From Escherichia coli (GTDB taxonomy: Bacteria > Pseudomonadota > Gammaproteobacteria > Enterobacterales > Enterobacteriaceae), in NCBI RefSeq assembly GCF_003790525.1, contig NZ_CP033635.1: 64,000 nucleotides of DNA, one strand, 5' to 3'. The stretch's first letter is position 1, and every line of letters starts with the position of its first letter. Under the pieces are notes generated by a model that searched no databases, had not been told where the DNA came from, and saw only the letters and a program-made list of their open reading frames with translations. The position numbers and the translations under genes were made by a program. Shown piece after piece: positions 45,573 to 47,330 of this stretch.

Positions 45573-47330
45573 ATGAAAATGACTTTGCCGTTTAAACCCC
45601 ATGTGCTGGCGCTAATTTGCAGTGCCGGGCTTTGTGCCGCCTCTGCCGGGCTATATATAAAAAGCCGCACAGTGGAAGCGCCTGTGGAATCGCAATCGAC
45701 ACAACAGACTGCGCCTGACATCTCCGCAGTTACGCTTCCTGCAACGGTTTCCGCGCCTCCCGTAACGCCTGCCGTCGTCAAATCTACATTCAGCACTGCA
45801 CAAATAGATCAATGGGTTGCGCCTGTCGCGCTGTACCCCGACTCTCTGCTTTCACAAGTGTTAATGGCATCAACCTATCCGGCAAACGTTGCGCAAGCAG
45901 TGCAATGGTCGCACGATAATCCACTTAAACAAGGCGATGCTGCTATTCAGGCGGTATCTGACCAGCCCTGGGACGCCAGCGTCAAATCACTGGTGGCCTT
46001 TCCACAGTTGATGGCATTGATGGGCGAAAACCCGCAATGGGTGCAAAACCTGGGCGATGCTTTTCTGGCGCAGCCGCAGGACGTGATGGACTCGGTACAA
46101 CGATTGCGGCAACTGGCGCAACAAACCGGTTCGCTAAAGTCATCAACTGAACAAAAGATCATCACGACAACGAAAAAAGTCGTACCGGTAAATCAGCCCG
46201 CCAACGCCCCTGTTACACAATCAAATACCGTTTCTACGTCCAGCCCCGTCGTCGCAGAACCTGCACCGACCGTAATAACCATTGAGCCAGCCAATCCGGA
46301 TGTGGTTTATATTCCGAACTACAACCCAAACGTGGTTTACGGCAGTTGGGCCAATACCGCTTATCCGCCAGTTTATCTGCCGCCGCCAGCCGGAGAACCG
46401 TTTGTTGACAGCTTTGTGCGCGGATTCGGCTATAGCATGGGCGTTGCTACCACATACGCACTATTCAGCAGCATCGACTGGGACGACGACGATCATGACC
46501 ATCATCATCATGACGATGATGATTATCATCACCACGATGGCGGTCATCGTGACGGTAATGACTGGCAACACAACGGCGACAACATCAATATCGACGTCAA
46601 CAATTTCAACCGTATCACTGGTGAGCATCTTACTGATAAGAATATGGCATGGCGGCACAATCCAAACTACCGTGATGGTGTGCCCTATCATGATCAGGAT
46701 ATGGCAAAGCGGTTTCACCAAACCGATGTCAACGGCGGCATGAGCGCCACGCAGTTACCTGCTCTATCGCGCGACAGTCAGCGTCAGGCAGCAGCAAGTC
46801 AGTTTCAGCAACGAACACACACTGCGCCAGTCATTACGCGAGATACTCAACGTCAGGCTGCGGCACAGCGATTTAATGAAGCGGAACATTATGGGAGCTA
46901 TGACGACTTCCGCGAGTTCAGCCGTCGCCAACCACTGACCCAGCAACAAAAGGACGCTGCTCGTCAGCGTTATCAGTCGGCCTCGCCTGAGCAGCGCCAG
47001 GCAGTCCGCGAGAAAATGCAGACTAACCCGCAGAACCAGCAGCGAAGAGAGGTAGCGCGTGAGCGTATTCAGTCTGCAACTCCCGAACAGCGCCAGGTGT
47101 TTAAGGAAAAAGTACAGCAGCGCCCACTGAACCAACAGCAACGTGATAACGCCCGCCAGCGTATACAATCGGCATCACCTGAACAACGTCAGGTTTTTCG
47201 GGAGAAAGTTCAGGAGAGCCGCCCACAACGTCTAAACGACAGTAACCATACTGTCAGGCTGAATAACGAGCAACGGTCAGCAGTACGCGAACGTCTCTCT
47301 GAGCGCGGAGCAAGGCGACTGGAAAGGTAA
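45573..47330 (+). CDS. yacH: DUF3300-family secreted protein YacH with His/Asp-rich tract and C-terminal tandem repeats
   Basis: 585-aa ORF MKMTLPFKPHVLALICSAGLCAASAG...; synteny between acnB and lpd. Confidence 0.8.
   Translation: MKMTLPFKPHVLALICSAGLCAASAGLYIKSRTVEAPVESQSTQQTAPDISAVTLPATVSAPPVTPAVVKSTFSTAQIDQWVAPVALYPDSLLSQVLMASTYPANVAQAVQWSHDNPLKQGDAAIQAVSDQPWDASVKSLVAFPQLMALMGENPQWVQNLGDAFLAQPQDVMDSVQRLRQLAQQTGSLKSSTEQKIITTTKKVVPVNQPANAPVTQSNTVSTSSPVVAEPAPTVITIEPANPDVVYIPNYNPNVVYGSWANTAYPPVYLPPPAGEPFVDSFVRGFGYSMGVATTYALFSSIDWDDDDHDHHHHDDDDYHHHDGGHRDGNDWQHNGDNINIDVNNFNRITGEHLTDKNMAWRHNPNYRDGVPYHDQDMAKRFHQTDVNGGMSATQLPALSRDSQRQAAASQFQQRTHTAPVITRDTQRQAAAQRFNEAEHYGSYDDFREFSRRQPLTQQQKDAARQRYQSASPEQRQAVREKMQTNPQNQQRREVARERIQSATPEQRQVFKEKVQQRPLNQQQRDNARQRIQSASPEQRQVFREKVQESRPQRLNDSNHTVRLNNEQRSAVRERLSERGARRLER
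46959..47246 (+). repeat. Three in-frame 96-nt tandem repeats inside yacH
   Basis: Units ARQRYQSASPEQRQAVREKMQTNPQNQQRREV / ARERIQSATPEQRQVFKEKVQQRPLNQQQRDN / ARQRIQSASPEQRQVFREKVQESRPQRLNDSN. Confidence 0.85.

Follow-up and report, generated by a model that had tools for sequence, protein, structure and literature searches.

In-frame copy-number variation of a 96-nt coding repeat at the 3' end of Escherichia coli yacH

The 64-kb stretch of Escherichia coli DNA analyzed here (the window) contains yacH, a non-essential gene whose protein has no known function. Its open reading frame matches yacH of E. coli SMS-3-5 (NC_010498.1) with 100% identity and is flanked by acnB (minus strand, divergent) and lpd (minus strand, convergent), in the same order as in K-12 (Table 1). 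The stem-loop downstream of yacH folds with -18.7 kcal/mol (z = -2.6) and is absent from the list returned by a consensus terminator scan; the three minus-strand terminator-like sites inside the repeat described below are at chance level. A Pfam scan with the whole protein (E <= 10) aligned positions 2-227 of the 227-position model PF11737 to residues 75-333, which makes YacH a DUF3300 protein, and beyond this returned just a chance-level match to DUF1104 (E = 2.4). No NCBIfam model matched YacH, a fold search gave no match, and no solved structure was related to it by sequence, the sole matches being His-tag-like and confined to the His/Asp tract. An Rfam scan of 45200-47500 matched no family. 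In the AlphaFold model of YacH (82-sequence alignment, mean pLDDT 72), the helical core of the DUF3300 domain (aa 75-184) was predicted with pLDDT above 90. To judge from its sequence, the N-terminal segment may be cleaved after ASA, and YacH is probably located in the cell envelope.

Table 1. Features of yacH and its 3' flank in the window.
Feature	Position	Strand	Basis
yacH CDS, 585 aa, DUF3300 domain-containing protein	45573..47330	+	ORF list; same start as K-12 b0117
Probable signal peptide or membrane anchor, N-terminal hydrophobic segment MKMTLPFKPHVLALICSAGLCAASA	45573..45647	+	Sequence reading; AlphaFold helix 9-30
DUF3300 domain, aa 75-333	45795..46571	+	Pfam PF11737, E = 7.5e-78
His/Asp-rich tract DWDDDDHDHHHHDDDDYHHHDGGHRD, length also polymorphic between strains	46476..46553	+	Strain comparison
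Partial leading unit FSRRQPLTQQQKDA, like the tail of the B-type unit 2	46917..46958	+	Sequence reading
Repeat unit 1, type A: ARQRYQSASPEQRQAVREKMQTNPQNQQRREV	46959..47054	+	Unit comparison
Repeat unit 2, type B: ARERIQSATPEQRQVFKEKVQQRPLNQQQRDN	47055..47150	+	Unit comparison
Repeat unit 3, type C: ARQRIQSASPEQRQVFREKVQESRPQRLNDSN	47151..47246	+	Unit comparison
Degenerate terminal unit HTVRLNNEQRSAVRERLSERGARRLER (HTVRLNNEQRSAVRERL...), 3 aa out of register, runs to stop codon	47247..47327	+	Sequence reading
Probable bidirectional terminator, stem-loop with flanking A run and T run, between convergent yacH and lpd	47342..47372	.	Sequence; folding

Previously, yacH was found to be under CpxR regulation, and its deletion improved survival in protamine (PMC9600279). 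The gene is given as a pseudogene in Salmonella Typhimurium 14028s, UK-1, D23580, and SL1344, with an 8-nt frameshifting deletion in UK-1 relative to LT2 (PMC3391293), and the same frameshift was reported from another Typhimurium isolate as 850_857delGATCATCA at Asp284 (PMC10048834). The deleted stretch (GATCATCA, Asp/His codons) would place this mutation in the His/Asp tract.

Positions 46959-47246 consist of three head-to-tail units of exactly 96 nt (32 codons) each, with zero indels between them. The copies have diverged too far for Tandem Repeats Finder and a generic repeat finder, both of which missed the array, and unit identity was therefore calculated directly. The pairs of units share 61/96, 52/96, and 61/96 nucleotides (54-64%) and 19/32, 17/32, and 19/32 residues (53-59%), and the longest in-register run common to any two of them is 10 nt. 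There were 38 in-register amino acid matches out of 64, a value reached by none of 100,000 residue shuffles (mean 7.0, maximum 21), and 122 nucleotide matches out of 192, where codon shuffles gave 56.7 +/- 6.2 (z = 10.5). The three unit types are told apart by their second half: A (..AVREKMQTNPQNQQRR..), B (..VFKEKVQQRPLNQQQRDN), and C (..VFREKVQESRPQRLNDSN). An earlier note on this DNA had described three tandem 96-nt units of perfect period, and this description stands, the period being exact and the similarity far above that of shuffled sequences. It holds for the period only, as "perfect repeat" would be wrong for copies of this divergence, and with its partial leading and degenerate terminal units the array is slightly longer than the three full units. 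Between units 1 and 2 the matches by first, second, and third codon position were 22, 24, and 15 of 32. Since third-position matches are low and synonymous sites are saturated between the paralogous units of the window allele, these units are old copies that have been kept alike by selection at the protein level.

A 96-bp unit is also known from ms11, a locus used for MLVA typing of E. coli and Shigella (PMC8215070). With as many as 3 mismatches allowed, neither ms11 primer had a match in the 64-kb window, and the yacH array is thus a different locus.

At the protein level, each unit is a 32-residue Gln/Arg-rich module, PEQRQxxxEKxQ followed by PxNQQRRxxARxRIQS, with each half forming a predicted helix that is started by a proline. 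The model of the whole protein and that of a 191-residue C-terminal fragment (pLDDT 66, pTM 0.26) both gave, for every unit, a helix of 12-13 residues from PEQR and one of 16 residues from the second proline (pLDDT 65-86), which bears out the earlier suggestion of a likely helical array. A further helix was predicted at residues 565-581 in the degenerate terminal unit. At a pTM of 0.26 the relative arrangement of the unit helices is not confidently predicted, and the tail may be either a stack of hairpins or a flexible rod. The SPEQR of YacH resembles the LTxxQ motif of the periplasmic LTXXQ proteins Spy, CpxP, and ZraP. Like these proteins, YacH has Gln/Arg-rich segments, predicted to be helical, that begin at a motif of the Ser/Thr-Pro-Glu-Gln type, and it is a probable envelope protein of the Cpx regulon. 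YacH had no Pfam, NCBIfam, or fold match to the Spy/CpxP LTXXQ family (PF07813) and is not a member of it by sequence.

Alignment of the window protein with K-12 YacH (b0117, 1854 nt, 617 aa) revealed a gap of a whole 32 aa inside the array, that is, one extra 96-nt unit in K-12. The K-12 length given in the earlier note (about 617 aa, roughly one unit more than the 585 aa of the window) was thus correct. When the comparison was extended to other alleles, we found 2, 3, 4, and 5 units among E. coli, with both 3- and 4-unit alleles common (Table 2), so that the copy-number variation proposed in the earlier note is real. The alleles of 553, 585, 617, and 648 aa are all open and collinear with the frame kept, and the PEQR motifs are spaced by exactly 32 aa in each E. 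coli allele examined except the divergent one of AST85, which has 34-aa units. Outside E. coli, MOD1-EC7003 has three units (A-B-C), E. whittamii and Escherichia sp. E1V33 have four (A-A-B-C), and E. albertii has three in a different order.

Table 2. Repeat architectures of yacH alleles.
Architecture	Protein length	Strains
A-B-C	585-587 aa	SMS-3-5, AR_0104, ST2747, KO11FL (E. coli W)
A-A-B-C	604-617 aa	K-12, O157:H7, A10, 097H6, WP4, 2e
A-A-C (B2-strain architecture)	585-593 aa	UTI89, ExPEC XM, 401656
(A/B)-C, 2 units	553 aa	158274-3
A-A-A-B-C, 5 units	648 aa	P0006
Three A units, a truncated unit, and C (5-unit allele)	634 aa	P0001

The gene was found in 5,425 of 5,426 complete E. coli genomes. 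Unit gain or loss creates no allele-specific junction sequence, and frequencies were hence estimated by sampling rather than by an exact count: three systematic samples (40, 60, and 60 rows) were drawn down the hit rankings from the 5,425 genomes, and rows with partial alignments were assigned from verified representatives or left out of the assignment. Three-unit lengths were found in 17/40, 25/60, and 26/60 genomes (pooled, about 42% of 160), and four units made up most of the remainder, about half or more of the 160. One 2-unit allele and one yacH copy interrupted by IS1 were also present. Within the sampled lineages the copy number was uniform, with four units in all K-12 derivatives and three in all B2 strains.

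For the selection acting on the gene, we calculated dN/dS, which was 0.02-0.09 in the DUF3300 domain and 0.14 over the whole gene. Between orthologous alleles or alleles of the same architecture, the array gave 0.05-0.30, similar to the rest of the gene. The array is thus under purifying selection, and its sequence matters. The tolerance of YacH for a varied number of modules probably reflects their place in a modular helical tail rather than in a single globular fold.

The units themselves bear traces of how their number has changed. At the DNA level, units 1 and 2 of the 4-unit alleles agree at 86-95% of positions, with uninterrupted in-register matches of 21-75 nt, compared with 50-73% identity for all other unit pairs; in K-12, dS between units 1 and 2 is 0.15, and every other pair is saturated. 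In 4-unit alleles, unit 2 combines the head of unit 3 (1/21 mismatches) with the tail of unit 1 (1/75 in A10, 5/75 in K-12). The clearest case is the 2-unit allele of 158274-3, whose unit 1 has 1 mismatch to unit 1 of 2e in its first 43 nt and 0 mismatches to unit 3 of 2e in its last 53 nt, the switch point falling within a 22-nt run that units 1 and 3 of 2e have in common. In KO11FL, unit 1 joins a unit 1 head (0/21 mismatches) to a tail that is closer to unit 2 (1-2/75) than to unit 1 (5/75). In these three cases the breakpoints are in register and the chimeras are clear. Unit 3 of the B2 alleles, compared with AR_0104, has a B-type head (4 vs 12 mismatches) and a C-type tail (25 vs 2), a result that depends on the reference chosen, and for the tail of unit 1 in the window the diagnostic sites are too few to assign it (2/75 from unit 2 and 3/75 from unit 1 of the closest 4-unit allele). 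The recombination between repeats that the earlier note had suggested is therefore supported, in that the number of units changes in register, with chimeric units as the result.

Copy number also varies across the phylogeny of the gene. In a neighbour-joining tree built from the 5' part of the gene outside the repeat, the E. coli alleles form two major clades, each with A-B-C and A-A-B-C members, and the 3-unit KO11FL and 2-unit 158274-3 cluster with the 4-unit allele of 2e; 2-, 3-, and 5-unit forms all occur among the relatives of 2e. Because both states are found in both clades and in other Escherichia species, with KO11FL and 158274-3 beside 2e, the numbers of units have interconverted repeatedly. 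The count of independent events may be an overestimate, since whole-allele transfer between lineages clearly occurs.

Taken together, the constant period in a multiple of three, the kept frame, the variable number, and the in-register breakpoints are those of a coding tandem repeat with copy-number polymorphism, and we conclude with considerable confidence that yacH ends in an in-frame coding minisatellite whose copy number changes by in-register misalignment. Neighboring units would misalign in register, by slipped-strand or sister-strand misalignment in replication or by unequal homologous exchange, and 96 nt would be gained or lost with the frame kept and chimeric units left behind. The 2-, 3-, 4-, and 5-unit alleles would have arisen in this way across E. 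coli, some architectures more than once. Instability would scale with the likeness of adjacent units, making the A-A pairs of 4-unit alleles the likely substrate. In E. coli, deletion and duplication between short adjacent repeats proceed largely by RecA-independent replication misalignment, and efficient RecA-dependent exchange requires perfect identity over at least about 25 bp. Given these requirements, the window allele with its 10-nt run should be much more stable than the allele of 2e with its 75 nt, and it should be a poor substrate for further change.

The direction of change is less certain. The A-B-C form may be the retained ancestral state, with the additional unit of K-12-type alleles stemming from tandem duplication of 96 nt; we regard this as slightly less likely than not. 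To judge from the unit sequences, the chimeric unit 2 of the 4-unit alleles carries the signature of unequal exchange that duplicated 96 nt in an A-B-C allele: it is a near-perfect chimera with the junction expected from one such exchange between units 1 and 2. The low dS between K-12 units 1 and 2 and the A-B-C order in another Escherichia species, MOD1-EC7003, point the same way. However, A-A-B-C is found in E. whittamii, in Escherichia sp. E1V33, and in both major E. coli clades, the deletion-type chimeras of KO11FL and 158274-3 mean that losses certainly happen, and gene conversion between units could imitate a duplication junction. The chimera alone gives no direction, because duplication and deletion are reciprocal products. 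The earlier description of the window allele as one unit shorter than K-12 is thus right as to length and is no proof of a deletion, as a duplication signature is seen equally in the K-12 form.

It is rather unlikely that the distribution of 3- and 4-unit forms stems mainly from whole yacH alleles having been replaced horizontally between lineages or species, and not from recurrent slippage within lineages. Import of alleles is suggested by the unusually high dS of yacH between SMS-3-5 and K-12 (0.28; lpd has 0.05 and acnB 0.14), which rises to about 0.9 in the linker at aa 201-245, by the mosaic structure of alleles such as that of A10, by the nesting of the Escherichia sp. E1V33 allele inside E. 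coli in the 5' tree, and by the 28% divergent allele carried by AST85. Replacement only moves variants, however, and cannot make chimeric units or the 2- and 5-unit alleles seen among the near-identical 2e, KO11FL, 158274-3, and P0006.

Programmed, high-frequency variation, in which yacH would be a contingency locus that rapidly switches an envelope or surface property through its copy number, is very improbable. YacH is a probable envelope protein of the CpxR envelope-stress regulon (PMC9600279) that changes its length in frame, as such a locus might. However, the frame is never shifted by the 96-nt unit, the copy number is uniform in the sampled lineages, including laboratory K-12 derivatives, and the units of most alleles are too diverged for frequent slippage. 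A contingency locus is expected to have a unit of 1-8 nt that shifts the frame or the promoter spacing, and the yacH unit lies inside the coding sequence and keeps the frame. That a unit was collapsed in the SMS-3-5 assembly is extremely unlikely, for although repeats can collapse in short-read assemblies, nothing specific points to it here, units of 54-64% identity that are shorter than a sequencing read could not collapse, and some 40% of complete genomes from many laboratories have the 3-unit length with lineage-coherent architectures.

Coding repeats of variable number are well known in other bacteria. The alpha C protein of group B Streptococcus reportedly has polymorphic in-frame tandem repeats of 246 nt, and ClfA of Staphylococcus aureus is said to have a polymorphic stalk of Ser-Asp repeats. 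The yacH array resembles these in its head-to-tail units of a multiple of three, in copy-number differences that keep the frame, and in its position apart from the conserved domain. It differs from them in that its units are old and diverged (54-64% identity, bar the A-A pair), number 2-5, and look stable within lineages. The variation in yacH is real but ordinary in-frame length polymorphism. A literature search for yacH repeat polymorphism found no paper describing it, and as far as we could find it is newly documented here; the kind of polymorphism is well known, and it points to no new mechanism.

Other DUF3300 proteins have tails like that of YacH, rich in Arg, Gln, Asp, and Ala and with short tandem units, in a survey that had no null model and is qualitative only. 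In the DUF3300 protein of P0160, DRDAARQKAQNV occurs five times; this sequence is similar to RDAARERIQS, the core of the YacH unit. A period of 32 aa was found in Escherichia only; other enterobacterial genera have, in the same place, a variable number of units of about 19 aa (AKSHVQNPTAQQQQRRE).

We speculate, with low expectation, that the YacH tail is a module tunable in length or valency, in which the number of helix pairs sets the reach of the protein or the number of anionic envelope ligands bound. This idea is compatible with the purifying selection on the array and with the Arg/Gln-rich repeat tails of other DUF3300 proteins. If it were true, the architectures A-A-C (B2), A-A-B-C (K-12, O157), and A-B-C (SMS-3-5, W) would be kept by selection, and they would alter phenotypes of the envelope, for example susceptibility to cationic antimicrobial peptides, the sole phenotype linked to yacH so far (PMC9600279).

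The result is an exact description of natural variation in one uncharacterised E. coli gene. YacH has no single length but is a set of alleles with 2-5 modules, and the K-12 reference fits about half of the strains. This is relevant to the use of K-12 YacH as a model, to calls of "truncated" or "variant" yacH in comparative genomics, and to pan-genome clusters, and the natural allelic series provides ready constructs for probing the C-terminal tail of a DUF3300 protein.

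Within E. coli, the divergence of yacH is unusually high: between SMS-3-5 and K-12, dS was 0.28 (window 45573-46958), and the adjoining genes lpd and acnB gave values of 0.05 and 0.14, respectively. The alleles have a mosaic structure, and the linker internal to the DUF3300 domain (aa 201-245, window 46173-46307) falls into two deep allele classes with a dS of ~0.9 and a dN of 0.17. Alleles at least 99% identical to the yacH of the window were found in only 22 of 5,425 genomes, and one allele of another Escherichia species nests among those of E. coli. In strain AST85, we observed 28% DNA divergence in the 5' part of yacH, and the encoded protein has repeat units of 34 aa and a longer N-terminal linker; the flanking lpdA encodes the same protein (WP_000102485.1) as it does in the other strains that were compared. 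The yacH of AST85 is probably an imported allele.

The His/Asp-rich tract of YacH also varies in length. Relative to the window allele, it is longer by 2 aa in strain AR_0104 and by 8 aa in strain 401656, and shorter by 13 aa in strain 2e and by 7 aa in the protein P0066. The composition of this tract suggests that it may bind metal. In Salmonella Typhimurium strains, yacH is inactivated by an 8-nt frameshifting deletion (PMC3391293; PMC10048834), and because the deleted sequence is GATCATCA, this deletion probably lies in the equivalent His/Asp tract. In addition, IS1 interrupts yacH in one complete genome (H41, NZ_CM129855.1), and in E. coli E69 (CP089930.1) the gene is disrupted past ~residue 375. 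These two disrupted copies and the pseudogenes of Salmonella together show that yacH is dispensable.

Features in and around yacH (L numbers denote compared yacH loci)
Feature	Coordinates	Strand	Description
His/Asp-rich tract	window 46476-46553		DWDDDDHDHHHHDDDDYHHHDGGHRD; within yacH; second length-polymorphic site of the gene
Older internal repeat	window 46768-46796 and 46837-46865		RD(S/T)QRQAAA.(Q/R)F; spacing 69 nt (23 aa)
Antisense ORF	window 46764-47168	minus	134 aa; spans the array
Stem-loop	window 47342-47372		GC-rich, with an A run on one side and a T run on the other; between convergent yacH and lpd
Region of the B2 intergenic insert	L004 2059-2299		ExPEC XM; likewise in L011 (UTI89) and L012
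Divergent yacH allele	L008 1001-2860		E. coli AST85, NZ_AP043644.1

Downstream of the gene, B2 strains carry ~170 extra bases between the yacH and lpd stop codons. This insert contains REP-type palindromic elements and an Rfam match to the ES036 (CssrF) sRNA, which scored 38.2 bits against a gathering threshold of 37.6. In the window, the stem-loop between the two genes (-18.7 kcal/mol, z = -2.6) is probably a bidirectional terminator; it is absent from the output of the consensus terminator scan, perhaps because pairing of the A and T runs lengthens the stem. On the minus strand of the array region, three terminator-like hairpins were found, a frequency at chance level, and the antisense ORF most likely arises as a by-product of codon usage rich in CAG, CGC and GAG.

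As a separate observation, yacH-like matches on plasmid-labelled records were few (3-7 places in the complete-genome set).

Repeats other than the 32-aa array occur in YacH and its relatives. The older internal repeat is recognisable also in the YacH of other genera. Immediately upstream of the array, the 662-aa protein P0024, as well as P0028 and P0031, has a separate 45-aa tandem duplication (APVITRDTQRQAAAQRFNEAEHYGSYDDFHDFSRRQPLTQQQKDA x2), which belongs to a K-12-like allele present on several contigs. When we compared the C-terminal tails of other enterobacterial genera (loci L021-L042; Atlantibacter, Salmonella, Raoultella, Kluyvera, Citrobacter and others), we found, in place of the 32-aa Escherichia unit, 2-4 copies of a ~19-aa unit, ..NPTAQQQQRRE.., which reads STPEQRQARRENVQQRVSA in the MAG UBA5654. 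Both the period and the number of the tail repeats turn over between genera.
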